A stretch of 64,000 nucleotides of DNA from an uncultured Oscillospiraceae bacterium (lineage in GTDB: Bacteria; Bacillota; Clostridia; Oscillospirales; Oscillospiraceae), in NCBI GenBank assembly GCA_964370925.1, contig CAYJLH010000004.1, forward strand, positions 3,167-67,166, read 5' to 3'. The number at the start of each line of letters is the position of its first letter. Position 1 is the stretch's first letter. The translations under genes were made by a program, and so were the position numbers. The notes below the pieces were generated by a model, which saw only the letters and a program-made list of their open reading frames with translations, had not been told where the DNA came from and did not search any database. Shown piece by piece: positions 40 to 32,450 of this stretch.

Positions 40-300
40 TAATGTATTCGTTAAATGCTGTGAAGAGAAGTAGTATCAAGCTTTTTTGCGTTTCAGAGAG
101 GCGATGTTTGGTGAAAATCGCCCGTAAATACTTGAGAAGTCGTCTCCGAGCTTTGTCGGTGAATTTTATGTAGCCAACAACGTATATTCTGCGTTAAAGA
201 ATTCGAGTGCGGAAATTTTATTTTTCCGAACACAGGTGGTACCACGGTATTTTTTAAAATTATCGCCCTGAGATTTTCTCGGGGCTTTTTTTATTTTTAA
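40..300 (+). promoter_or_regulatory. T-box leader (tRNA-sensing riboswitch) upstream of valS. T-box sequence GGTGGTACCACGG at ~237-249 and an intrinsic terminator (gccctgaga/tctcggggc + U7) at 263-293.
   Basis: Matches the T-box consensus AGGGUGGNACCGCG. Strong stem-loop followed by a T-run lies immediately before the valS RBS. aaRS genes in Firmicutes are typically T-box regulated. Confidence 0.55.
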
Positions 301-319
301 ATAAGGAGCATTTTTTACT

Positions 320-2941
320 ATGAAAGAACTTCCAAAGATTTACGACCCTAAAGCGGTTGAAAAAAAAATCTATGATATGTGGGTTAAAGGTGGTTATTTT
401 AAGGGCGTTATCGACCCCGAAAAGAAACCTTTTACTATAGTTATCCCACCACCAAATGTCACAGGTCAACTGCATCTTGGACATGCTTTTGACGAGACTA
501 TACAAGACGTTTTAACACGTGTTAAGCGTATGCAAGGCTATTCTGCGCTTTGGATTCCCGGAACTGACCACGCAGGCATAGCAACTCAAATCAAGGTCGA
601 AGAGGAACTTCGTGTTAAAGAGGGAAAAACTCGTTACGACCTCGGACGTGAGGCATTTTTAGAGCGTGTTTGGGATTGGAAGCACAAATACGGTAGCCGT
701 ATTGTCGAACAACTTAAAACTCTTGGTTGCTCATGTGACTGGGATAGAGAGCGCTTTACTATGGACGAGGGTTGCTCAAAAGCTGTGCGCGAAGTTTTTG
801 TTTCACTTTACGAAAAAGGGCTTATTTATAAAGGCAATCGCATTATCAACTGGTGTCCAACTTGCACAACTGCACTTTCTGATGCTGAGGTTAACCACGA
901 AGAAAAACCCGGTAACTTCTGGCACATTAAATATCCAATAAAAGACAGCGACGAATTCTTAATAATTGCCACCACTCGTCCCGAAACTATGCTCGGTGAC
1001 TCCGGTGTCGCTGTTAGCCCCGACGACGAGAGATATGCTCATCTAATCGGCAAAACATGCATACTTCCGCTGATGAACCGTGAAATGCCTATCATCGCCG
1101 ACGAATATGTTGACAAAGAATTTGGTACAGGTTGCGTTAAAATGACACCTTGTCATGACCCTAATGACTTTGAAGTCGGTCAACGTCACAATCTTGAGCA
1201 AATCCTTATCATGGATGAAAACGCTAAGATTATCAACGGCGGAAAATATAACGGCATGGACAGATACGAAGCTCGCCGTGAAATTATAAAAGACCTTGAA
1301 GAACTTGGTTTGTTAGTTAAAATAGAGCCACATAACCACAATGTCGGCACATGCTACCGCTGTGGAACTGTTGTCGAGCCTATCACAAGCCCACAATGGT
1401 TTGTTAAAATGGAACCTCTTGCGAAAGAAGCTATGGAAGTTGTTCGTGACGGGCAGATTAAATTTGTACCTGACCGCTTCGTAAAAACTTATGAAAATTG
1501 GATGGAAAATGCTCATGACTGGTGCATTTCTCGTCAACTTTGGTGGGGACATCGTATCCCTGTTTGGTACTGCTCAGACTGCGACCACATGACAGTTTCT
1601 CGTGAAGATGTCTGCGAATGTGAAAAATGCCAAAGCAAAAATATCGAGCGTGATGAAGATGTTTTGGACACTTGGTTCTCTTCTGCGCTTTGGCCTTTCT
1701 CAACTTTGGGCTGGCCTGATAAAACACCTGATTTAGATTATTTCTACCCAACTGACGTCCTTGTCACAGGTTATGATATTCTATTTTTCTGGGTTGCTCG
1801 TATGATTTTCTCTGCCAATGAGCACACAAAACAAGTGCCTTTCCACACTGTATTTTTCCACGGATTAATCCGTGATGCAGAGGGCAGAAAAATGAGTAAG
1901 AGCCTTGGAAATGGCGTTGACCCACTTGATGTCATCGACACTTACGGCGCTGACGCACTGCGCTTCAACATCATCACAGGCAACAGCCCAGGAAACGACA
2001 TGCGCTATTATAACGAGCGTTGTGAGGCTATGAGAAACTTTGCAAATAAGGTCTTTAATGCTTCTCGTTTCGTTATGATGAACCTTACAATCGAGAAAAA
2101 CGAGCTTCCCGAAAAACTTGAACTTGAGGATAGATGGATTTTATCAAAACTCAATACTCTTGCAAAAGATGTCTGCGACAACTTCGACAAATACGAGCTT
2201 GGAATTGCCGCCGGTAAAATTTATGACTTCATTTGGGACAGCTATTGTGACTGGTATATCGAGCTAATCAAACCACGTCTAAACGGTGACGACAAAGAAC
2301 TAAATCTTTCCGCTCAAAAAGTTATGCTTTATGTTTTGACAGAAATTTTGAAGTTACTACACCCATTTATGCCTTTCATCACAGAGGAAATTTGGCAAGC
2401 ACTCCCCCACGAGGGCGAGGCACTTATGATAGAGCGCTATCCGGAATTCACAGAAAAACTAAACTTCCCACAGGACGAAACTGACTTCGAAACCATCATG
2501 TCTGCTATACGCTCTGTTAGAAGCACACGTGCTGAAATGAATGTTCCTCCATCCAAAAAACCAACTTTGATTATCGTAACAGAGAAAACAGCTGTGTTTG
2601 AAAAAGGCCTAGTTTTCCTATCAAAACTTGCATATGCAGGTAGCGTTGAAATCTCAACAACTGCACCCGAAAGCCTCGACGGAATGGTTAGCGTCGTGAC
2701 TGATGAGGCGAAGATGTTCATGCCAATGGCAGAGCTTGTCGACCTCGACAAGGAGCGTGCGAGAATTCAAAAAGAAATCGAAAAAGCCGAAAAAGAGCTT
2801 GCAATGCAAGAGGGCAAACTGAAAAATGAAAAATTCATTTCAAAAGCGCCCGAGAATATAGTTGCTCAAGAGCGTGAAAAAGCCGAGAAAACAAAAGCAC
2901 TTCTTGAAAACCTCAAAGAGAGCTTAAAAAACCTAGGTTAA
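320..2941 (+). CDS. valS: valyl-tRNA synthetase
   Basis: 873 aa. Class I aaRS HIGH-like motif ([13 protein letters not shown]) and KMSKS (KMSKS present). C-terminal coiled coil typical of ValRS. Confidence 0.97.
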
Positions 2942-3055: not shown

Positions 3056-3385
3056 ATGAAAATTACATCAAGTAGAAATGACGGGCATCTCTATATTTTT
3101 TTATCTGGAGAGTTAGACCACCATGGAGCAAAGGATGGATTTGTAAAAATCTCAGCCATTTTGGACGAATACATGCCACAAAGTTGCATAATTGATATGT
3201 CAGGACTAACTTTTATGGACAGCTCAGGCATCGCTTTGGTGCTTCGAGTATATAAAACTGTTTCAAATTACGGCGGTGCGACCATGGTCCAAAATCCTTC
3301 AAGGCAACCGTTTAAGGTCTTGGAAGCGGCAAAACTTGAAAGAATTGTAAAAATATTATGTACAACAGCGGAGGGCGAAAGATGA
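3056..3385 (+). CDS. spoIIAA: anti-sigma F factor antagonist (STAS domain)
   Basis: 109 aa STAS protein. It lies immediately upstream of, and overlaps by ATGA, a serine-kinase anti-sigma and a sigma-F-like gene. Confidence 0.85.
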   Translation: MKITSSRNDGHLYIFLSGELDHHGAKDGFVKISAILDEYMPQSCIIDMSGLTFMDSSGIALVLRVYKTVSNYGGATMVQNPSRQPFKVLEAAKLERIVKILCTTAEGER

Positions 3386-3825
3386 ACAAACTAAACTATA
3401 TAAGACTAGAAATTCCAAGTAAAAGTATTAATGAATCCTTTGCGAGGGCAGCGGTTGCGTGCTTTGCGGCACAAACCGACCCTACGCTTGAGGAATTAAA
3501 TGACATAAAAACAGCAGTTAGTGAGGCAATCACCAACTGCATTGTACATGCCTATCCCGAAGAAATCGGCAAAATTTTACTTAAGGCGACAATTTACGAA
3601 GATAACAGCATCGAAATCATCATCCGTGATTGGGGTAACGGAATTTCCGATATTACTAAGGCTCGTGAGCCGATGTTCACAACAGGTGGCGACGACAGGA
3701 GCGGAATGGGTTTTACAATTATGGAGAGTTTTATGGACGAGCTTAAAGTTCGTTCGACAAACGGACGTGGCACGACGGTGACACTCAGACGAAAAATCAC
3801 CAACAGAGGAAAGAGAGCTGAATGA
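3382..3825 (+). CDS. spoIIAB: anti-sigma F factor (GHKL serine kinase)
   Basis: Start moved to ATG 3382 (MNKLNY) with RBS GGAGGG and ATGA overlap with spoIIAA. HATPase motifs (DWGNGI, GMGFTIM). Confidence 0.85.
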   Translation: MNKLNYIRLEIPSKSINESFARAAVACFAAQTDPTLEELNDIKTAVSEAITNCIVHAYPEEIGKILLKATIYEDNSIEIIIRDWGNGISDITKAREPMFTTGGDDRSGMGFTIMESFMDELKVRSTNGRGTTVTLRRKITNRGKRAE

Positions 3826-4526
3826 CGTCAAACGAAGAGCTAATCCGTGCCGCACAACAGGGCGACAACGACGCTATGGAGGCAGTTGTCACCGAAAACA
3901 CCGGTCTTATTTGGAGTGTTGCTAGGAGGTTTTGCGGTCGTGGTGTTGACCTTGACGACCTCTATCAGCTCGGTTGTGTTGGTTTTATTAAAGCGGTGCA
4001 AGGCTTTGACGAGAGCTATGGCACTCGCTTTTCCACCTATGCTGTGCCAAAAATTTCGGGTGAAATTCGCAGATTTTTGCGAGATGACGGCAGTGTTAAA
4101 GTCAGCCGTGGCATAAAAGAGCGTGCAAATGTTATCCGAACCGCACGAAATGTGCTTGAGCAAAAACTGGGAAGAGAGCCTACAATCTCAGAGATTTCAG
4201 AAGAAACCGGTCTTGATATCGAAGAAATTGCAATCGCCGAAACCGCCACAGGACCGACAGAATCGCTCAACCGTGAAAGCGGCGAGGACGGTTTCACTCT
4301 TGAGCATGTCTTGGGAGATTTTAACCAGGAGGAGCGTATGCTCGAGCGTGTCGCTCTCAAAGAAGCGCTTGCTGTGCTTTCTGAACGGGAACAAATGGTT
4401 ATTTCTTTGAGGTTTTTCCATGGACTTACACAGGATAAGACAGCGAAATCTTTGGGTGTTTCTCAGGTTCAAGTTTCTAGGCTTGAGAGGAAGGCTTTGG
4501 TGGCATTACGGGAGTTTTTGGAGTAA
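3822..4526 (+). CDS. sigF: sporulation sigma factor F (sigma-70 family, group 3)
   Basis: 234 aa with sigma70 regions 2 and 4. Operon context spoIIAA-AB-sigF. Confidence 0.9.
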   Translation: MTSNEELIRAAQQGDNDAMEAVVTENTGLIWSVARRFCGRGVDLDDLYQLGCVGFIKAVQGFDESYGTRFSTYAVPKISGEIRRFLRDDGSVKVSRGIKERANVIRTARNVLEQKLGREPTISEISEETGLDIEEIAIAETATGPTESLNRESGEDGFTLEHVLGDFNQEERMLERVALKEALAVLSEREQMVISLRFFHGLTQDKTAKSLGVSQVQVSRLERKALVALREFLE

Positions 4527-5050: not shown

Positions 5051-6682
5051 TCAATTACCTTGTTTCTCTAACGCCGCTCCAACAAGCCCCAAAAACAAAG
5101 GATGCGGATTATTCGGTCTGGTTTTAAACTCAGGATGAAATTGCACTGCCACAAAATAGCTATGCTCTTTTATTTCAACGGCTTCAACTAAACTTCCATC
5201 GGGCGATAAACCTGAAATCAAAAGTCCTTTTTCCGCCATCACTTCCCTATATGAATTATTAAACTCATATCTGTGTCTGTGTCGCTCTGAAATGCTCTTT
5301 TTCGCATACAGTTCCCTCATTTTGCTGTTGTCTTGCAACTCACAAGGGAAAGCTCCAAGGCGCATTGTGCCACCTTTTTCGTTAATATTTATCTGTTCCT
5401 CCATTATGTGAACAACGGGATGCGGCGATATTTCGTCAAATTCTGTCGAATGTGCTTTGTCAAGTTTACATACATTTCTAGCGAATTCAATCGCAGCAAC
5501 TTGCATCCCAAGACAAATCCCAAGAAAAGGCAAATCATTTTCTCTCGCATATTTGCAAGCAGAAATCATGCCCTCAACTCCCCTGTCACCAAAGCCACCG
5601 GGGAGTACCATTCCGTCAACGTCGCCAAGCTCTTCGGCGACATTTTTTTCTGTCAAAAATTCGCTGTCGACCCACTTAATTTCTATTTCTGCACCCTTAC
5701 CATAACCTGCGTGCTCAAGTGCTTCATTGACTGAAAAATACGCGTCGTGGAACTGAACATATTTCCCAACCATCGCAATTCTAACCTGTCTTTTTCGATT
5801 TGCGATTTTTTGGAGCATCTCTTTCCACTCCCTTAAATCACAGTCGTTAGCTTCGATTTCAAACTCACGGCAAACAACCTCATCCAAACCTTTTTCATGT
5901 AGCATTATCGGCGCTTCGTAAAGACATGGAAGAGTATAATTTTCTATGACGCAGTCGGGTTTTACATTGCAAAACATAGATATTTTTTGGAGAATACTGG
6001 GGTTAATCGGCTCGTCAGCTCTCGCTACGATTATGTCAGGTGAAATACCTATAGAGCGCAGTTCTTTGACCGAGTGTTGAGTTGGTTTCGACTTATGTTC
6101 TCCACCGCCTTTTAGATATGGAACTAGGGTCACATGGATAAAAAGACAGTTCGTTTTTCCAACTTCAAGTGCAACTTGTCTTATAGTCTCTAAAAACGGT
6201 TGGCACTCGATATCACCTGTCGTCCCACCTATTTCGGTAATTAAAACATCCGCTCCACTTTGCTCTGCACCGGCATAAATGAACTTTTTAATTTCGTTTG
6301 TAATATGCGGAATTACTTGAACAGTTTGCCCTAAATACCCACCTTTTCTTTCACGACTGAGAACATTATCATAAACTTTTCCCGAAGTCAAATTTGAAAG
6401 TTTTGATAGATTTTCATCTATAAAACGCTCATAATGCCCCAAATCAAGGTCAGTTTCAGCACCGTCATCAGTTACATAAACTTCGCCATGTTGAAATGGA
6501 CTCATAGTTCCGGGGTCAATGTTCATATAAGGGTCGAGTTTTTGAGCTGTCACTTTTAAGCCTCTTTGCTTCAAAAGTCTGCCCAAACTCGCTGCCGTAA
6601 TTCCTTTGCCCAAACCAGAAACAACACCGCCGGTTACAAATATAAATTTAGTATTTCTCTGCTTATTATCACTTGTTTTCAT
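5051..6682 (-). CDS. pyrG: CTP synthase
   Basis: 543 aa. N-terminal synthetase domain ([15 protein letters not shown]) and C-terminal class I GATase with catalytic Cys (GICLGMQ). Confidence 0.97.
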
Positions 6683-7250
6683 ACAATTTTAAAATCCCCT
6701 CTGCTATTGCTCGCCTTGTCGACCGTGAATCCATCGCCTGTCTTTCTATATACTTGTGTGCCTCCTGCTCGGACATGCTCAAATAAGAAACAAGCACATG
6801 TTTCGCCCTGTCGACTATCCTAATATCTTCAATTTTTTGTACTAACTTTTGGTTTTCTTTTTGCATTTGCGACATTCTTCTATGTGCTGCCCTCGCAAGT
6901 TTTAATGAAAACCAGAACATATTTTTATTTATCGGTTTGGCAACAGTTATAACTCCATAATCTTCAACCAATTCCGATATTTCTTCATAATGCTCACTTT
7001 TTACGATTAATATAACAGTGCTTTTACTTTGTGTTGCAATGAAAGTCGAAAGTTTCTCACCTGATTCGTCTTTCATCGGCGCATTGATAACAACTAAGTC
7101 GAAATCCTGTCCTTGAATTAACCGTCTAGCCTCTGAACCGCTGGTGACAGTCACTATTCTTTCAAGTGAAAAATCTTTCAATGTGTCACTCACAAAAGCT
7201 GTTCCCTTTTCAAATCCGGATACTATAAGAGCCGTTTCAATAACTTCCAC
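6669..7250 (-). CDS. ANTAR-domain response regulator (NitR/AmiR-like RNA-binding antiterminator)
   Basis: 193 aa. Receiver-like N-terminus plus C-terminal ANTAR motif ([39 protein letters not shown]). Sits directly downstream of glnA, as in clostridial glnA-nitR loci. Confidence 0.8.
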
Positions 7251-7276: not shown

Positions 7277-8596
7277 TTAATATTGATTAAAATAATTCGC
7301 TTTTACAAACAGTTCTTTATCGCTTGCATTTTCAAGCTCAAGGATTTCATCCGCTTTAATATCTGAATATTTTGACAGTAATTCCTCACCCAAAACCGCC
7401 TTTACAAGCTCAGATTTTTCCGCAATTTTAATCGCTTCAATAAGATTTTCGGGAAGTTTTCGCATTTTTTTCGAAGTATCCGCATTCAATTCCCTGATTT
7501 CTATATCGGTAGGCGCAGGCAGTTTCAACCCATTTTCCATGCCATATAATCCCGCTCCTATGATGAGCGCAAAGGCAATATATGGATTTATAGTTGGGTC
7601 AGGCGAGCGAAGCTCCATTCTCATTCTATCGCCCGACGCTGTTGGAATTCTCACAAGTTGCGACCTATTTTGAGCCGACCACGACACATAAGACGGGGCT
7701 GCTAGTTTTCCAAATCTGTCATATGAATTTATAGTCGGATTTAAAAACAGAGTTATCTCTTCAATTTTTTCAAGCACGCCGGCAACAAAGCTCTCGGCAG
7801 CTTCGCTTAACATTTCGTCCTTTGATCCGAAAATATTTTCACCATTTTTGAAAAGAGAAATGTTTACATGAAGTCCGCTTCCGCTATAATCTTTCAGTGG
7901 TTTTGGCATGAATGATGCGAAAAGTCCATTTCTCGCCGCTATGGCTTTCACGACAGATTTAAAGGTCAACAGATTGTCAGCACAACTTAGCGCATCGCTG
8001 TATTTAAAGTCAATTTCGTTTTGTCCTGGCCCTTTTTCATGGTGAGATGCCTCGGGTTTTAGTCCCATTTCCTCGAGGTTTAAGCAAATATCTCGTCTGA
8101 TATTCTCACCCTTATCGAGCGGTGATATGTCGAGGTAACTACCATAATCTAAGGTGTCATAGGTTGGGTTTGAGTCGTCATCAGTTTTAAATAAGTAAAA
8201 CTCACACTCAACACCGATTTTGCAAACATAGCCTTTTTCCTCAATTTGCTGTAACACTCTTTTTAATATGTATCTGCTGTCCTGAGAAAAAAGCTTCCCG
8301 TCAGGAGTTTTAATATCGCAGTAAAAACGCAAAACCCTCCCCGGTCCCGGTCTCCATGGCAAAACAGTTAATGTATCAGGATCTGGAAACAAAAGAAGGT
8401 CTGATGTCGTGATATCTTTAAATCCGTGTATGGACGATGCATCAAAAGGCACACCGTTTTCGAAAGCGTGTCCCAGCTCTTCGGACATAAGCGAAATGTT
8501 CTTGTGTACTCCAAACGGGTCACAAAAGCTCAGCCTAACAAATCTTACGTCATTTTCTCTTACGAATTGCAGGACCTCTTTCACTGTACTATTCAT
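7277..8596 (-). CDS. glnA: glutamine synthetase, type I-like
   Basis: 439 aa with GS beta-grasp and catalytic domain motifs. Confidence 0.9.
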   Translation of the reverse strand: MNSTVKEVLQFVRENDVRFVRLSFCDPFGVHKNISLMSEELGHAFENGVPFDASSIHGFKDITTSDLLLFPDPDTLTVLPWRPGPGRVLRFYCDIKTPDGKLFSQDSRYILKRVLQQIEEKGYVCKIGVECEFYLFKTDDDSNPTYDTLDYGSYLDISPLDKGENIRRDICLNLEEMGLKPEASHHEKGPGQNEIDFKYSDALSCADNLLTFKSVVKAIAARNGLFASFMPKPLKDYSGSGLHVNISLFKNGENIFGSKDEMLSEAAESFVAGVLEKIEEITLFLNPTINSYDRFGKLAAPSYVSWSAQNRSQLVRIPTASGDRMRMELRSPDPTINPYIAFALIIGAGLYGMENGLKLPAPTDIEIRELNADTSKKMRKLPENLIEAIKIAEKSELVKAVLGEELLSKYSDIKADEILELENASDKELFVKANYFNQY

Positions 8597-8713
8597 AAAT
8601 CCCTCTCCTCACATTATTAAAATCGTCATAAAAGCGAAAAACGCCCATCAAAACGCAGAAAGAGGCAAAGCCCTCCCCCTGATATGTTTGATGAACGCCC
8701 TTGTTCATTGCTG

Positions 8714-8746
8714 TCAGTATACATGTTTTATCAGTATTTGTCAATA
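8714..8746 (-). promoter_or_regulatory. candidate sigma-A promoter for glnA (-35 TTGACA, 17-nt spacer, -10 TATACT)
   Basis: Hexamers read on the minus strand at 8739-8744 and 8716-8721. Followed by a ~120-nt leader. Confidence 0.4.
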
Positions 8747-8835: not shown

Positions 8836-8864
8836 TTGACAAGGCACAATTACTGTGATATACT
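8836..8864 (+). promoter_or_regulatory. candidate sigma-A promoter for asnA-glnN (-35 TTGACA 8836-8841, 17-nt spacer, -10 TATACT 8859-8864)
   Basis: Consensus hexamers with optimal spacing, divergent from the glnA promoter. Confidence 0.45.
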
Positions 8865-8882
8865 TCGGGACATGACAGCAAA

Positions 8883-8920
8883 GGCGCTGTGAGCTTATGG
8901 CTCGCAGTGCCATTTTTTTA
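8883..8920 (+). terminator. leader intrinsic terminator (attenuator) between the asnA promoter and the asnA start
   Basis: 12-bp stem ggcgctgtgagc / gctcgcagtgcc (two G-U pairs) followed by AUUUUUUUA. It sits about 12 nt after the predicted TSS and upstream of the real asnA RBS. Confidence 0.5.
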
Positions 8921-8938: not shown

Positions 8939-9943
8939 ATGAGTATTTTAGAACAAAAAGACTACACTTCCGCATTATCATTGTATTCAACACAAAAAGC
9001 AATCGGAGCACTGAAGAGGATTTTCGAAGATAACTTGGCTCAAGCTTTAAATCTAACACGAGTTTCAGCTCCTCTTATCGTTGAGCCACACACAGGACTA
9101 AACGATGACCTTAACGGTATCGAGCGTCCAGTTGAATTCGATATTAAAGCAACAGAAACTAATGCACAAATCGTTCACTCTCTTGCAAAATGGAAGAGAA
9201 TGGCACTACATAAATACGGCTTCCCTGTCGGCGAAGGATTATACACAGACATGAACGCAATTCGCCGTGATGAGGACATGGACGCACTTCACTCTATATA
9301 TGTTGACCAATGGGATTGGGAAAAAGTTATTGATTTAGAGACTAGAACTGTGGTAACATTGAAAGATATTGCAACAAAAATCATCAATTCAATTTGCGAT
9401 ACACAGGATAAACTCAAAGCTCTATACCCTGAGCTTAAAACAACACTTACTAAAGAAATCGCTTTTATAACAACTCAAGAGCTTGAGGACATGTACCCAG
9501 AGTTAACATCCAAAGAGCGCGAGAATACATATCTAAAAGAACATAAAACAGCATTTGTTATGCAAATCGGCGACAAACTTAAATCCGGTGAAAAGCATGA
9601 CGGCAGAGCGCCTGACTATGACGACTGGTCACTAAACGGCGACATTCTTTTCTGGAACGAAACTTTGCAACAGGCTTTTGAAGTTTCTTCAATGGGTATC
9701 AGAGTTGACCCCAAGGCAATGGATGAGCAGCTCGCAAAAGCAAACTGTGACGACCGCCGTGAAATGCCTTTCCACAAAGCACTTCTAAATAATGAACTCC
9801 CACTTACAATCGGTGGCGGTATCGGTCAATCAAGACTTTGTATGTTATTACTTGAAAAAGCACACATCGGTGAAGTCCAAGTTTCTATCTGGGACAATAA
9901 AACAAAAGAATCATGCGCAAAAGCAGGAATTATATTACTATAG
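8939..9943 (+). CDS. asnA: aspartate-ammonia ligase (asparagine synthetase A)
   Basis: About 335 aa with AsnA motifs. Start moved from ATG 8897 (inside the terminator hairpin) to ATG 8939 with RBS GAAAGGGG. Confidence 0.85.
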   Translation: MSILEQKDYTSALSLYSTQKAIGALKRIFEDNLAQALNLTRVSAPLIVEPHTGLNDDLNGIERPVEFDIKATETNAQIVHSLAKWKRMALHKYGFPVGEGLYTDMNAIRRDEDMDALHSIYVDQWDWEKVIDLETRTVVTLKDIATKIINSICDTQDKLKALYPELKTTLTKEIAFITTQELEDMYPELTSKERENTYLKEHKTAFVMQIGDKLKSGEKHDGRAPDYDDWSLNGDILFWNETLQQAFEVSSMGIRVDPKAMDEQLAKANCDDRREMPFHKALLNNELPLTIGGGIGQSRLCMLLLEKAHIGEVQVSIWDNKTKESCAKAGIILL

Positions 9944-9955
9944 GAGAAGATAATA

Positions 9956-12046
9956 ATGAATAATATTCCTAATATGTTTGGTTGCAAAGTTTTTAACGAT
10001 AATGTTATGCGTACCAGACTTCCAAAAGACGTTTACAAAGCACTTCATAAAACTATTGCTGAAGGAAAACAGCTCGATGTTAAAGTTGCAAATGTTATCG
10101 CCACTGCTATGAAAGAGTGGGCAGTTGAAAACGGCGCAACTCACTACACTCACTGGTTCCAACCCATGACAGGGTCAACCGCTGAAAAGCATGATAGCTT
10201 TATTTCTCCTATTAATAATTGTGAAATTATTATGGAGTTTTCAGGTAAAGAGCTTGTTCGTGGTGAACCCGATGCATCAAGCTTCCCCTCTGGTGGACTT
10301 CGTGCGACTTTCGAAGCTAGAGGATACACAGTCTGGGACACAACTTCTTATGCTTTTATAAAAGACGATTCCCTCTGTATCCCAACAGCTTTCTGCTCAT
10401 ACAGCGGTGAGTCGCTCGACAAAAAAACTCCTCTACTACGTTCTATGGAAGCTATTAACAAGCAAGGTTTGCGTATTATCAAGCTTTTCGGTAATAGCAC
10501 TGCAAAGAGAATTATCACAACAGTTGGTGCTGAACAGGAATATTTTCTCGTAGACAAAGAAGTTTATCTAAAACGCCCCGACCTTATAAACTGCGGTAGA
10601 ACTTTATTCGGCGCTCGCCCTCCCAAGGGTCAAGAGCTTGAAGACCACTACTTCGGTTCTATAAAACCAAGAGTTTCGGCTTATATGAAAGAGCTTGACG
10701 AAGAACTTTGGAAAGTTGGCGTTTTCTCAAAAACAAAACATAACGAGGTTGCTCCGGCTCAACATGAGCTTGCGCCCGTTTTCACAACAACTAACCTAGC
10801 GACTGACCAAAACCAAATCACTATGGCACTTATGAAAGACATCGCCCAAAAGCACGGACTTGTTTGTCTTTTACATGAAAAACCCTTTGCTGGGGTTAAT
10901 GGTAGCGGTAAGCACAATAACTGGGCAATTTCGACAGATACAGGTATTAATCTACTTGAACCAGGTGAAACACCTCATGAAAATGCTCAATTCCTATTGT
11001 TCCTAACTGCAATCATCAAAGCCGTTGACGTTTATCAAGACTTGCTCAGAATTTCTGTTGCAAGTGCCGGAAACGACCACAGACTGGGCGCTAACGAAGC
11101 TCCCCCTGCTATTGTTTCTATCTTCCTCGGCGATGAACTTACTGAAATTTTAGACGCACTAAAAAGTGATTCTGATTACGAAGGTAAAGAGCGTATCCAA
11201 ATGGAAATCGGCACAACCGTTCTTCCTCCGTTCCCAAAAGACACAACAGACCGCAACAGAACTTCACCTTTTGCTTTCACAGGCAATAAGTTTGAGTTCA
11301 GAATGCTCGGTTCTTCAATTTCAATCGCAGGTGCAAACATCATCCTAAACTCTGCTGTTGCAGAAATTTTCGAAGAGTTTGCAGATACACTTGAAAAAGC
11401 AGACGATTTCAAATCGGCTCTTACAAAACTTATTAGAGACACAATCAATAAGCACGACCGTATTATTTTCAACGGAAATAACTACTCTCAGGAGTGGGTT
11501 GAAGAAGCAAAAAGACGTGGTCTATCTAACCTACAGACAACTGTTGACGCTCTTCCAACTTTCCGCAGTGAAGAGAGCAAGAGAATGTTTGCTAATCAAT
11601 GTGTTTTCTCTGGTACAGAAATTGATGCGAGATACGAAATCCTTATGGAGGGCTATTGTAAGACCATACATATTGAGGCTCTCACAATGATTGACCTTAC
11701 TAAAAAGGAAATTTTGGCTTCATCTTTTGAGTATCAATCAGAACTTGTTACACTTTTAAACGGCAAAAAAGCAGTTGGAATTGACACAAGCTCAGAGGAA
11801 GCACTTGTTAAGAAGCTAACAGCTTTGACAAAAGATTTGCTTGCAAAAGTCGATCTACTCGAAACAAATGTCATGAAAGCGTCTGAAACTTCAAATGACA
11901 TTTTAGCTCACGCACAGTATTACAGAAATTCTATTTTCTCTGTCATGAATGAACTTAGACTAGTAGTCGACGAGTTGGAAACCATAGTTGCAAAGAAGCA
12001 CTGGAAATTCCCCTCATACATGGAACTACTATACAGTGTAAACTAG
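9956..12046 (+). CDS. glnN: glutamine synthetase type III
   Basis: 696 aa. GSIII-specific N-terminus (MFGCKVFND) and GS catalytic domain. Confidence 0.9.
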   Translation: MNNIPNMFGCKVFNDNVMRTRLPKDVYKALHKTIAEGKQLDVKVANVIATAMKEWAVENGATHYTHWFQPMTGSTAEKHDSFISPINNCEIIMEFSGKELVRGEPDASSFPSGGLRATFEARGYTVWDTTSYAFIKDDSLCIPTAFCSYSGESLDKKTPLLRSMEAINKQGLRIIKLFGNSTAKRIITTVGAEQEYFLVDKEVYLKRPDLINCGRTLFGARPPKGQELEDHYFGSIKPRVSAYMKELDEELWKVGVFSKTKHNEVAPAQHELAPVFTTTNLATDQNQITMALMKDIAQKHGLVCLLHEKPFAGVNGSGKHNNWAISTDTGINLLEPGETPHENAQFLLFLTAIIKAVDVYQDLLRISVASAGNDHRLGANEAPPAIVSIFLGDELTEILDALKSDSDYEGKERIQMEIGTTVLPPFPKDTTDRNRTSPFAFTGNKFEFRMLGSSISIAGANIILNSAVAEIFEEFADTLEKADDFKSALTKLIRDTINKHDRIIFNGNNYSQEWVEEAKRRGLSNLQTTVDALPTFRSEESKRMFANQCVFSGTEIDARYEILMEGYCKTIHIEALTMIDLTKKEILASSFEYQSELVTLLNGKKAVGIDTSSEEALVKKLTALTKDLLAKVDLLETNVMKASETSNDILAHAQYYRNSIFSVMNELRLVVDELETIVAKKHWKFPSYMELLYSVN

Positions 12047-12078
12047 TTTAAATCATACAAAAGAATACAAAAAGCACA

Positions 12079-12131
12079 ATGACGTGTATTTTCCGAATTA
12101 ATTTTCGGGAACTACACGTCTAATTTTATTT
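12079..12131 (+). terminator. stem-loop plus U-tract between glnN and amt. Either the glnN terminator or the amt leader attenuator.
   Basis: gacgtgta...tacacgtc outer stem with an inner ttccg/cgggaa stem, then taattttattttt directly before the amt RBS GGAGG. Confidence 0.45.
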
Positions 12132-12146
12132 TTGGAGGTATTTATT

Positions 12147-13826
12147 ATGTTCTCAGCAGTTGATACAATTTGGACCTTACTAGCCGCCGCATTGGTTTTT
12201 TTCATGCAGGCTGGATTTGCAATGGTGGAAACAGGCTTTACAAGAGCAAAAAACGCCGGTAACATCATCATGAAAAACATCATGGACTTTTCACTGGGCA
12301 CTCTTATGTTCTGGCTAATCGGTTTTGGCTTAATGTTTGGCGGTGATGGAGCATTTATCGGTGGTTTCGACCCCTTTATCAGAGGCGATTATAGCTCATC
12401 TATCCCAACATCAGCTTTCGTAATATTTCAAACAGTTTTCTGTGCAACAGCTGCAACCATCGTTTCGGGTGCAATGGCAGAGCGCACAAAATTTTCAACC
12501 TACTGCATGTACAGCGTTATTTTAAGTGCTATTGTCTACCCAATTTCAGGTCACTGGATATGGGGCGGCGGTTGGCTTTCACAGCTAGGATTTCATGATT
12601 TTGCCGGCTCAACAGCCGTCCACATGGTTGGTGGTGTTGCCGCTTTAATCGGCGCAAAAACTCTTGGTCCTCGTATAGGAAAATACACTAAAGACGGAAA
12701 ATCAAAAGCTATCCCAGGGCACAGCTTAACTCTTGGCGCATTGGGCGTTTTCATTCTTTGGTTCTGCTGGTTTGGATTTAACGGTGGTTCAACCGTTTCA
12801 ATGACAGACGGTTCTATAGAAGCAGCATCAAACATTTTTGTAACCACAAACATAGCTGCCGCTGCAGCAACAGCAGTTGTAATGGTCATCACATGGGTTC
12901 GCTACAAAAAACCTGACGTTTCAATGACATTAAACGGCGCTCTTGCCGGTCTTGTTGCAATCACAGCAGGCTGTGACGTAGTCACTCCAGCAGGTGCATT
13001 CGCAATTGGTATTATAGCTGGTTTCGTTGTCGTATTTGGAATCGAATTTGTTGACAAAGTTCTAAAAATTGACGACCCTGTCGGCGCTGTCGGAGTTCAC
13101 GGCATGGCAGGTGCTGTTGGTACTATCTTAGTCGGTGTGTTCGCCGTTGACGGTGGTTTGCTATATGGCGGTGGGTTTGCTTATCTTGGTGTGCAAACTA
13201 TCGGTGTTCTAGCAGTTATCGCTTGGGTTTCTGTCACAATGTCTATCGTTTTCACAGTTCTTAAAAACACTGTTGGACTACGTGTTACACACGCAGAAGA
13301 AATTGCCGGTCTTGACATTGAGGAACATGGACTATCAAGCAGTTACGCAGACTTTATGCCTGTTCCAATGGGAACAAACTTCAAACGCAGTGAAGATATT
13401 GAAGAAATCCCAGTCGCAGCAGTTGACGTTGACGAGGCTGTCCCTGTAATTAACACAGCAAAAGCAGGCACAAAAATGTCTAAAGTCGTTATTGTCACAA
13501 GTCAGACCAAGTTTGAAACGCTTAAAAAAGCCTTAGACGGGCTTGGAATTACAGGTATGACTGTAACTCAAGTTTTGGGTTGCGGTATGCAGAAAGGCTC
13601 TACAGCGCTTTACCGCGGTGTTCCGGTAGAGACAAAACTTCTTCCCAAAATCAAAATCGAGATTGTTATATGCAAGGTACCGCTATTGCTTTTCATTAAC
13701 ACAGTTAAAAAGGCACTATACACTGGCAACATCGGCGATGGAAAAATCTTCATCTATGACGTTGAAAATGTAATTAAAGTCAGCACAGGCGAAGAGGGAT
13801 ATGAAGCTCTTCAAGACATAGTTTAA
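12147..13826 (+). CDS. ammonium transporter (Amt) fused in-frame to a C-terminal PII (GlnK/NrgB) domain
   Basis: Single ORF. Residues 1-410 are an Amt channel. After a ~40-aa acidic linker, residues ~452-559 align with B. subtilis NrgB (GCGMQKG...YRG...KIEIV...GDGKIFIYDV...TGEEG). Start at ATG 12147, RBS GGAGG. Confidence 0.85.
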   Translation: MFSAVDTIWTLLAAALVFFMQAGFAMVETGFTRAKNAGNIIMKNIMDFSLGTLMFWLIGFGLMFGGDGAFIGGFDPFIRGDYSSSIPTSAFVIFQTVFCATAATIVSGAMAERTKFSTYCMYSVILSAIVYPISGHWIWGGGWLSQLGFHDFAGSTAVHMVGGVAALIGAKTLGPRIGKYTKDGKSKAIPGHSLTLGALGVFILWFCWFGFNGGSTVSMTDGSIEAASNIFVTTNIAAAAATAVVMVITWVRYKKPDVSMTLNGALAGLVAITAGCDVVTPAGAFAIGIIAGFVVVFGIEFVDKVLKIDDPVGAVGVHGMAGAVGTILVGVFAVDGGLLYGGGFAYLGVQTIGVLAVIAWVSVTMSIVFTVLKNTVGLRVTHAEEIAGLDIEEHGLSSSYADFMPVPMGTNFKRSEDIEEIPVAAVDVDEAVPVINTAKAGTKMSKVVIVTSQTKFETLKKALDGLGITGMTVTQVLGCGMQKGSTALYRGVPVETKLLPKIKIEIVICKVPLLLFINTVKKALYTGNIGDGKIFIYDVENVIKVSTGEEGYEALQDIV

Positions 13827-13831
13827 ACATA

Positions 13832-13866
13832 AAATCCGCTCAAATTTCTTTGAGCGGATTTTGCTG
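13832..13866 (+). terminator. intrinsic terminator after amt-glnK
   Basis: aaatccgctcaaa / tttgagcggattt hairpin plus T-run. Confidence 0.6.
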
Positions 13867-32265: not shown

Positions 32266-32325
32266 CATAAAAAAATCCTCCTCATTTTTGAATAATATTT
32301 CGATTTTACGTAAAAATAAGCACGC

Positions 32326-32415
32326 AAAACCAAAATCCTTTCCAAATACGGGAGGCATCACAATTACGGCGGATACCCTTAGGCTTATTTCCATATCAAA
32401 TAAGCTCGGATTTAT
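32326..32415 (-). promoter_or_regulatory. candidate molybdenum/tungsten-cofactor (Moco) riboswitch in the aor 5' leader
   Basis: Minus-strand transcript carries blocks AAAUCCGAGC, the hairpin gcuuauuu-gauaugg-aaauaagc, then UAUCCGCCG, GCCUCCCG and GGAAAGGAUUU. A P1 AAAUCC/GGAUUU closes the element. The blocks resemble my recollection of the Moco RNA motif (CCGAGC, CCGCC, CCUCC, GGAAAGG). Preceded by the promoter at 32422-32450. Confidence 0.4.
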
Positions 32416-32421
32416 AGTACT

Positions 32422-32450
32422 ATATTACCATAATTCAAATCGACTGTCAA
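32422..32450 (-). promoter_or_regulatory. candidate sigma-A promoter for aor (TTGACA, 17-nt spacer, TAATAT)
   Basis: Minus-strand hexamers at 32445-32450 and 32422-32427. Confidence 0.4.

Follow-up and report, generated by a model that had tools for sequence, protein, structure and literature searches.

This study focused on a gene of an uncultured Oscillospiraceae bacterium in which an ammonium transporter (Amt) module and a GlnK-type PII domain are joined in a single open reading frame (ORF). It lies within a 64,000-nucleotide stretch of contig CAYJLH010000004.1 (assembly GCA_964370925.1, positions 3,167 to 67,166), hereafter the window, and coordinates are those of the window unless another locus is named. 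Ammonium channels and PII regulators are usually encoded by separate genes, and the AmtB-GlnK pair serves in textbooks as the model of a transporter that a metabolite-sensing PII protein closes. The fusion gene occupies 12147..13826 on the forward strand (559 codons plus stop), and its frame runs without interruption from an ATG at 12147 to a TAA stop at 13824-13826, encoding 559 aa. A ribosome-binding site, GGAGG (12134..12138, forward strand), can be read from the sequence 8 nt 5' of the ATG; a TTG at 12132, also listed as a start, is unlikely to be used because it would overlap this site.

Both domains are complete. Residues 9-396 of the product match the Pfam family Ammonium_transp (PF00909; E 6.9e-128, 427 bits with a cut-off at 23) and residues 444-549 match P-II (PF00543; E 4.1e-21, 75.7 bits with a cut-off at 25), the latter match extending over profile positions 1-102 of 102. 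An AlphaFold2 (AF2) model of the fusion protein, built as a monomer on 37 homologues and thus informative on fold only and not on docking, consists of a folded Amt module, a disordered linker and a folded PII domain. An earlier note on this DNA had proposed an in-frame fusion of complete Amt and PII domains with neither stop nor frameshift between them, and the uninterrupted frame, the full-length Pfam matches and the predicted structure all bear this out.

The same architecture characterises a large, conserved family. All 120 best matches in a collection of 5.8 billion proteins, which stem from NCBI, JGI, ENA and Logan assemblies, carry both Pfam domains at 73-100 % identity and lengths of 542-578 aa; the closest named relatives among them are those of Scatolibacter rhodanostii and a Christensenella sp. 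(75-76 % identity). When the library was clustered at 50 % identity, both modules were found in 29 of the best 150 representatives, about 20 of which were fused over their full length, with identities as low as 37 %. With one genome taken for each GTDB species, a scan gave at least 80 loci, which were re-analysed ORF by ORF because tblastn coverage cannot separate a fusion from adjacent genes. Among the matches listed, 29 of 80 loci were single-ORF fusions (at least 29 in total), their hosts being Lachnospiraceae, Oscillospiraceae/Ruminococcaceae, Butyricicoccus, Lawsonibacter, Anaerocolumna, Desulfitobacterium, Allobaculum, a metagenome-assembled genome (MAG) of Bacilli and two Treponema MAGs; the other 51 were ordinary amt-glnK or glnK-amt pairs from other phyla. 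The fusion is present in the complete genomes of Anaerocolumna sedimenticola (CP048000) and Ruminococcus sp. JE7B6 (CP162391), and the gene callers of NCBI and JGI independently predict a single product for its orthologues. The earlier note had asked for a read-level check for a lost stop codon; the gene is no one-off in need of such a check, but belongs to a conserved family with full-length fused members down to the identity given above.

Two further arrangements were seen among the scanned loci. In L050 (7941-9426) the Amt part is spread over two frames while the PII part is still fused, which marks either a pseudogene or a sequencing error. A PII gene on either side of amt (glnK-amt-glnK) occurs in the split loci L029, L051, L054, L055, L057, L058 and L074, from Ignavibacteria, a Reyranella MAG and several Gammaproteobacteria.

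By Pfam, TIGR00836 and AF2, the Amt module (residues 1-403; 12147..13355, forward strand) comprises 11 transmembrane helices and a cytoplasmic C-terminal region (EEIAGLDIEEHG...SSYADF). The fusion protein scores 437.9 against the NCBIfam model TIGR00836 'amt' (cut-off 343.3), and the 11 long helices of the AF2 model have a predicted local distance difference test score (pLDDT) mostly above 90. The pore residues F98, W139, D151, H159, F211, S215 and H318 correspond to E. coli F107, W148, D160, H168, F215, S219 and H318, and these positions (the Phe gate, the twin histidines, Trp/Ser and Asp) are kept in 22-23 of 23 close relatives, a degree of conservation that argues for a conducting channel. 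Several of the divergent fused representatives P0124-P0216 lack one or both twin histidines (H168 replaced by Q, N, S or A; H318 by F, S or N) or W148, and these members may be non-conducting.

The Amt module is not of the AmtB type that the earlier note had assumed. It fails the AmtB equivalog model NF007947 (218 bits against a cut-off of 657), and its nearest solved structures are Ks-Amt5 (6eu6, E 7.7e-89) and Sd-Amt1 (8qj3/8qpf, 1.1e-71), with weaker matches to Af-Amt1 (4.6e-58) and E. coli AmtB (about 7e-54). The signature described for the N1/N2 ammonium pocket of sensor Amts, QX6EX15NX2D[F/T]X54-60TX2[S/T] (PMC11152129), is matched exactly by Q21, E28, N44, D47, F48, T104 and S107, and the module also has F24, the exit-funnel Asn263 and the switch residues K43 and Y119, the last two of which are kept in 23 of 23 close relatives. 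Across 28 fusions of the main clade, Q21 is found in 27 and each of the other eight N1/N2-related positions in all 28, while the signature, searched as a regular expression, fits 25 of them. In the clustered library the nearest relatives without PII are Amt-MCP chemoreceptors, Amt-HAMP-GGDEF and Amt-PAS-SpoIIE proteins. On these residues and matches, the Amt module is to be placed in a sensor-Amt-like class and not with AmtB. As a means of telling sensors from transporters the signature was not decisive: it occurs in full in 8 of 57 ordinary split amt-glnK pairs (Asn263 in 50 of 57), and cluster 2 of the paper that defined it includes proven plant AMT1 transporters (PMC11152129). It therefore gives a class, and not a function as transporter or sensor.

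The PII domain (residues 444-559; 13476..13823, forward strand) was delimited by Pfam, by ungapped alignment to the GlnK proteins of E. coli and B. subtilis, and by AF2, which gives the beta-alpha-beta-beta-alpha-beta core (strands 444-452, 472-479, 498-508 and 533-539; helices 453-465 and 513-524). Its T-loop, placed by alignment at PII positions 37-55 (residues 480-498; 13584..13640, forward strand) and including Q39, R47 and Val51, has the same 19-residue length as that of E. coli GlnK. Among solved structures the domain matches B. subtilis GlnK/NrgB best (4r25, E 1.7e-31), in agreement with the NrgB-like character proposed in the earlier note, and it does not reach the equivalog cut-offs of the E. 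coli type (92.6 against 202). Positions G35, G37, Q39, R47, G48, K58, G84, G87-D88-G89-K90 and F92 show no variation among the 41 fused proteins. In GlnK structures Q39 is a Mg2+ ligand, K58 contacts 2-oxoglutarate (2-OG) and the Amt channels are entered by R47; the R47 residues are 31 Å apart when docked and 46 Å apart with 2-OG bound (PMC3198391).

The T-loop motif YRGVPVETK is present as had been noted, and the tyrosine is indeed missing: PII position 51 is Val here and is Tyr in none of 50 fused PII domains, as against 51 of 66 split GlnKs from the same scan loci. Similarly, position 38 is Arg in no fused domain (M here, with M, V or I across the family) and Arg in 48 of 66 split GlnKs. 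The absence of Tyr51 and Arg38 is a trait of Firmicute-type PII proteins shared with B. subtilis GlnK, and was not made by the fusion. Position 101 is K here and mostly K in the fused family, compared with R in 64 of 66 split GlnKs and N in B. subtilis GlnK, while at position 103 the Ser found here is a minority state (6 of 41) and R is carried by 35 of 41 fused proteins.

Residue 444, which aligns with the initiator Met of GlnK, is M in 15 of the 41 fused proteins, I in 14, L in nine, F in two and Y in one, and looks like a relic of a former GlnK start codon. Synthesis of a free PII protein from this internal start was considered, since Met444 is retained here and preceded by a weak GCAGG, and was rejected as not conserved: the replacement of Met by I, L, F or Y makes a separate PII from an AUG at the ancestral start impossible in 26 of 41 members.

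Between the two modules lies a flexible, poorly conserved linker of 40 aa (residues 404-443; 13356..13475, forward strand), delimited by AF2 and the family alignment, its start being set by the alignment of E. coli AmtB, which ends at about residue 403 of the fusion protein. The pLDDT falls below 50 at residues 400-440, as expected of a flexible tether. A linker of about 40 aa had been described earlier as acidic; its length is as stated, but with seven D/E against four K/R it is only mildly acidic here, and acidity is not a feature of the family. When measured from residue 395, the end of the conserved C-terminal region motif, to the start of PII, family linkers are 36-64 aa long and variable in sequence, with 1-11 D/E and 1-8 K/R. 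Conservation near the linker is limited to the Amt C-terminal motif L-[AS]-SSYADF, immediately N-terminal to the linker itself, and to a brief patch, [AS]-[IV]-P-[VI]. Forty residues would give a contour length of about 140 Å, which should be ample for both docking and undocking of the PII domain.

Not all fusions carry the same kind of Amt module. In L048 (a Desulfitobacterium MAG, 854-2656) and P0213 the fused Amt resembles E. coli AmtB (the Y32/S263 type) and is without the N1/N2 pocket, and the fusions L022 and L026 are without D47. In a rough neighbour-joining tree these four fall among the split pairs, apart from the main fused clade; the neighbour-joining trees carry no support values, and the assignment to Amt classes rests on residue classes (Y32/S263 versus E28/N263) and not on topology. 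Judged by these residues, Amt modules of two or more classes carry a fused PII, which is to be expected if selection acts on the physical partnership of Amt and PII. The fused PII modules are 60-76 % identical to one another (five of six fused references compared) and do not exceed 54 % identity with any of the split GlnKs compared. Between the PII of L048 and main-clade PII domains identity is about 73 %, and the 12-mer of the leader described below is also present in L048. Two origins could be envisaged: several independent fusions within the Firmicutes, each from similar NrgB-type glnK genes, or an exchange of the Amt module in front of a conserved PII and behind a conserved leader. The sample of split pairs used for this comparison held no Firmicutes pairs and so favours neither of the two.

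A nitrogen-assimilation operon with the order asnA, glnN and amt-PII ends with the fusion gene. The first gene, asnA (8939..9943, forward strand; Pfam AsnA, E 1.2e-105), specifies an aspartate-ammonia ligase, and glnN (9956..12046, forward strand; Pfam GSIII_N, Gln-synt_C and Gln-synt_C-ter), directly 5' of the fusion gene, a type III glutamine synthetase (GSIII). An intrinsic terminator hairpin (13831..13862, forward strand; -27.2 kcal/mol, z = -4.55) marks the end of the operon. Divergent from it are glnA, a type I glutamine synthetase (GS) gene (7277..8596, reverse strand; Pfam Gln-synt_N/C), followed by a gene for an ANTAR response regulator (6669..7250, reverse strand; Pfam ANTAR and Response_reg), and beside these pyrG. 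No other PII or Amt genes were found within the 64-kb window. A GS gene lies at most 8 kb away in 12 of the 29 fused loci, mostly upstream and on the same strand, and is of the GSIII type in nine. In L003, L005, L019, L020, L023, L025 and L081-L083, as here, the fusion immediately follows a co-oriented glnN. The order in L081 is pyrG, an aminotransferase gene, asnA, glnN and amt-PII; in L082 and L083, ANTAR regulator, glnA and glutamate-synthase genes lie on one strand, divergent from glnN and amt-PII; and L025 repeats the layout of the window, the pairing of glnA with the ANTAR regulator gene thus being found in L025, L082 and L083.

The region directly 5' of the fusion gene (12075..12133, forward strand) contains, by folding and motif, an ANTAR-like mini-hairpin, CAC-[AATGAC]-GTG, that overlaps a terminator followed by a U-run. 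The mini-hairpin has a 3-bp stem and a hexaloop whose first base is A and fourth base G, and the terminator hairpin between glnN and the fusion gene (12081-12120) has a 16-bp stem (-27 kcal/mol, z = -6.0). Known ANTAR targets consist of two tandem hexaloop hairpins that follow the A1/G4 rule, the second overlapping a terminator, and ANTAR RNA hits have been reported upstream of PII and ammonium transporter genes (PMC3369931). The window has a single copy of the 12-mer CACAAWGRCGTG, which is also found just 5' of the fused gene in L003, L023, L048, L081, L082 and L083, and compensatory changes preserve the pairing of the terminator stem in loci with this 12-mer. It is also found upstream of pyrG in L025.

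Similar elements, recognised by sequence and folding, precede the other two nitrogen genes. Upstream of asnA (8836..8911, forward strand) are a promoter-like site (8836-8864), a mini-hairpin AGC-[AAAGGC]-GCT (8877-8888) and a terminator (8883-8911), and upstream of glnA (8656..8744, reverse strand) a promoter-like site (8744-8716), a mini-hairpin AAC-[AAGGGC]-GTT (8705-8694) and a terminator (8681-8656). Three ANTAR-like units with an AAWGRC-type hexaloop thus overlap or precede terminators before glnA, asnA and amt-PII, and these leader hairpins are candidate ANTAR-like targets. Within 70 nt the canonical partner hairpin P1 could not be found. Rfam assigns no family to the leader elements, and its weak hits (K10_TLS and others) are due to chance.

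Elsewhere in the window, a T-box leader (51-273, forward strand; 143.9 bits) lies directly 5' of a valyl-tRNA synthetase gene (320-2941, forward strand), and a Moco/tungsten riboswitch aptamer is found at 32319-32423 on the reverse strand (45.8 bits against an Rfam gathering score of 36). Positions 3056-4526 (forward strand) hold an operon resembling spoIIAA-spoIIAB-sigF, with genes for a STAS anti-anti-sigma factor, an HATPase anti-sigma factor and a sigma-70 family factor, an indication that the DNA stems from a spore-forming Firmicute.

Taken together, the fusion protein is probably a self-contained, effector-gated ammonium uptake unit, that is, a natural single-chain Amt-GlnK complex. The intact PII machinery, the pore residues, the flexible linker, the cytoplasmic C-terminus and the assimilatory gene context favour its being a gated transporter. 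The Amt module would form the usual membrane trimer, and since the C-terminus of Amt proteins is cytoplasmic (PMC10433425), the three tethered PII domains would hang beneath it as one PII trimer on their 40-residue flexible linkers. Under nitrogen sufficiency, when 2-OG is low and PII is bound to ADP, extended T-loops could place Arg47 (R490 of the fusion protein) into the three pore exits and shut off uptake; under nitrogen limitation, binding of Mg-ATP and 2-OG via Q39 and K58 would splay the T-loops and open the pores. Tethering would fix the stoichiometry at 3:3, provide a very high local concentration of PII and keep it at the membrane, and with such fixed stoichiometry and local concentration the default state should be closed. 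A closed default would suit anaerobes of gut, rumen and digester that live in millimolar ammonium, by avoiding futile cycling. Uridylylation would not be needed, since there is no Tyr51. The earlier idea that covalent fusion makes gating purely ligand-dependent is a reasonable inference, but the property is not specific to the fusion, as the unfused GlnK of B. subtilis also lacks Tyr51. A second layer of control can be envisaged at the leader, where the ANTAR-type hairpin and terminator would allow the fusion to be made only when the neighbouring ANTAR regulator permits read-through.

Some observations weigh against this interpretation. Several canonical ATP-contact arginines are changed (R38 to M, R101 to K and R103 to S here); R47, Q39 and K58 are kept in essentially all PII proteins (R47 in 66 of 66 split GlnKs), and their conservation is therefore no proof of pore plugging; and the full N1/N2 pocket and Asn263 of the non-transporting sensors Ks-Amt5 and Sd-Amt1 are present in the Amt module.

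The last of these points leads to an alternative that is possible, if on the unlikely side, in which the protein would serve as a receptor or transceptor for ammonium: the N1/N2 pocket would sense external ammonium and the C-terminal region would signal to the tethered PII trimer as transducer. PII would then combine external ammonium with internal 2-OG and ATP and signal to a partner, such as GS or a regulator, instead of serving as a simple plug. That the closest solved Amts are sensors, that the signature is exact here and nearly invariant across the main clade, that both switch residues are retained throughout the close relatives, that the nearest relatives without PII couple Amt to signalling modules, and that the twin histidines have been lost in some divergent members would all be consistent with it. 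The same signature in split amt-glnK pairs (together with their frequent Asn263), and in a cluster that contains proven plant transporters, argues in the opposite direction, as does the position of the gene in one operon with glutamine synthetase, as for an uptake system. PII is also joined to AmtB-like modules that have no pocket (L048, P0213). Moreover, PII is not among the known output modules, and no evident partner is encoded in the neighbourhood. A composite form, in which the main-clade fusions are transceptors that integrate external ammonium with 2-OG and ATP/ADP, gate themselves and possibly signal to GS or the ANTAR regulator, is in our estimate rather unlikely; if true, PII would be a previously unrecognised output module of Amt-type receptors.

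It is quite improbable that the tethered PII acts chiefly as a membrane docking platform, recruiting or sequestering a cytoplasmic partner according to nitrogen status, with pore gating secondary. Such roles have precedents, since B. subtilis GlnK anchors TnrA at the membrane and the AmtB-GlnZ complex of Azospirillum recruits or sequesters DraG, and a transcription factor, GS or the ANTAR regulator could be candidate partners here. B. subtilis GlnK is the nearest solved relative of the PII domain, the genes for GS and an ANTAR regulator are adjacent, and the fused PII modules form a distinct, well-conserved group, as would be compatible with an additional interaction surface. Yet no partner has been identified, a permanently membrane-bound PII cannot shuttle, so that the usual logic of sequestration is gone, and a docking function would in any case be compatible with pore gating. 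Finally, that the fusion is a sequencing or assembly artefact, with a stop or frameshift lost between amt and glnK, has nothing direct in its favour beyond the frameshifted Amt part of L050, which shows that such errors or pseudogenes occur, and is effectively excluded by conservation and independent gene calls: the shared architecture of all 120 relatives from many independent assemblies and sources, the at least 29 single-ORF loci (CP048000 and CP162391 among them), the conserved motifs in the linker and the loss of the ancestral PII start codon in most members.

No description of, or experiment on, a natural Amt-PII fusion was found in the full-text literature, in Amt and PII reviews or in sensor-Amt papers; some subscription reviews fell outside this search, and a prior mention is possible. 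Neither the parts nor their partnership go beyond textbook knowledge, and database entries with this architecture number in the thousands, so that the fusion is not new in kind. The mechanism to be expected holds no surprise. The fusion is, though, apparently unstudied. With one exception, the fused relatives are named in databases only as 'ammonium transporter', with the consequence that genome-based models of nitrogen regulation in Clostridia miss a PII protein. P0089, a 554-aa fusion 75 % identical to the protein of the window, is named 'adenylate cyclase' in NCBI, which is likely to be a misannotation. Fusions are abundant in Clostridia of gut, rumen and anaerobic digesters. The study of AmtB-GlnK is complicated by the modification of PII, its shuttling to other targets and a variable stoichiometry, whereas a single-chain fusion, with fixed stoichiometry, no modification site and PII bound to the membrane, would be a clean system in which to follow gating of Amt by 2-OG, ATP and ADP. 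The intact receptor pocket would also allow a direct test of its meaning ('sensor', 'transporter' or both), a matter left open by the sensor-Amt papers.

Among known systems, the leaders resemble those of ANTAR regulons (EutV, NasR, AmiR and the clostridial NitR) in having an ANTAR regulator gene beside glnA and A1/G4 hexaloop hairpins at terminators, and differ in the single mini-hairpin per site, without P1 or an Rfam match. With the sensor Amts Ks-Amt5 (6EU6) and Sd-Amt1 (8QJ3, 8QPF) the protein shares the full N1/N2 signature, E28, K43, D47, Y119 and N263, the last corresponding to N269 of Sd-Amt1 and to Ser in AmtB and Af-Amt1, as well as a cytoplasmic C-terminal module attached by a linker. 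Unlike them, it carries PII, the natural inhibitor and partner of Amt and not a recognised transducer, in place of a histidine kinase or HAMP-GGDEF transducer, its linker is disordered and not helical or HAMP-like, and its gene stands in a GS operon.

The E. coli AmtB-GlnK complex (PDB 2NS1, 2NUU) is built from the same two families, with a 3:3 geometry that would by analogy be expected here, a T-loop of the same length, and R47, Q39, K58, the GDGK B-loop and the Amt pore residues in common. It differs in that the fusion is one polypeptide, in the order amt then PII and with no signal peptide, is without the Tyr51 uridylylation switch, has R38, R101 and R103 replaced, carries E28/N263 where AmtB has Y32/S263, and lies under the AmtB equivalog cut-off. 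The AmtB(NrgA)-GlnK(NrgB) system of B. subtilis (4R25, 4RX6) has separate genes, a PII only about 51 % identical and N101 in GlnK versus K101 in the fused family, but both systems are of Firmicute origin, neither has a modifiable Tyr51, and their PII proteins share C36, have a hydrophobic side chain at position 38 and an aliphatic one at position 51 (Ile in 4r25), and carry KVP after the third beta strand.

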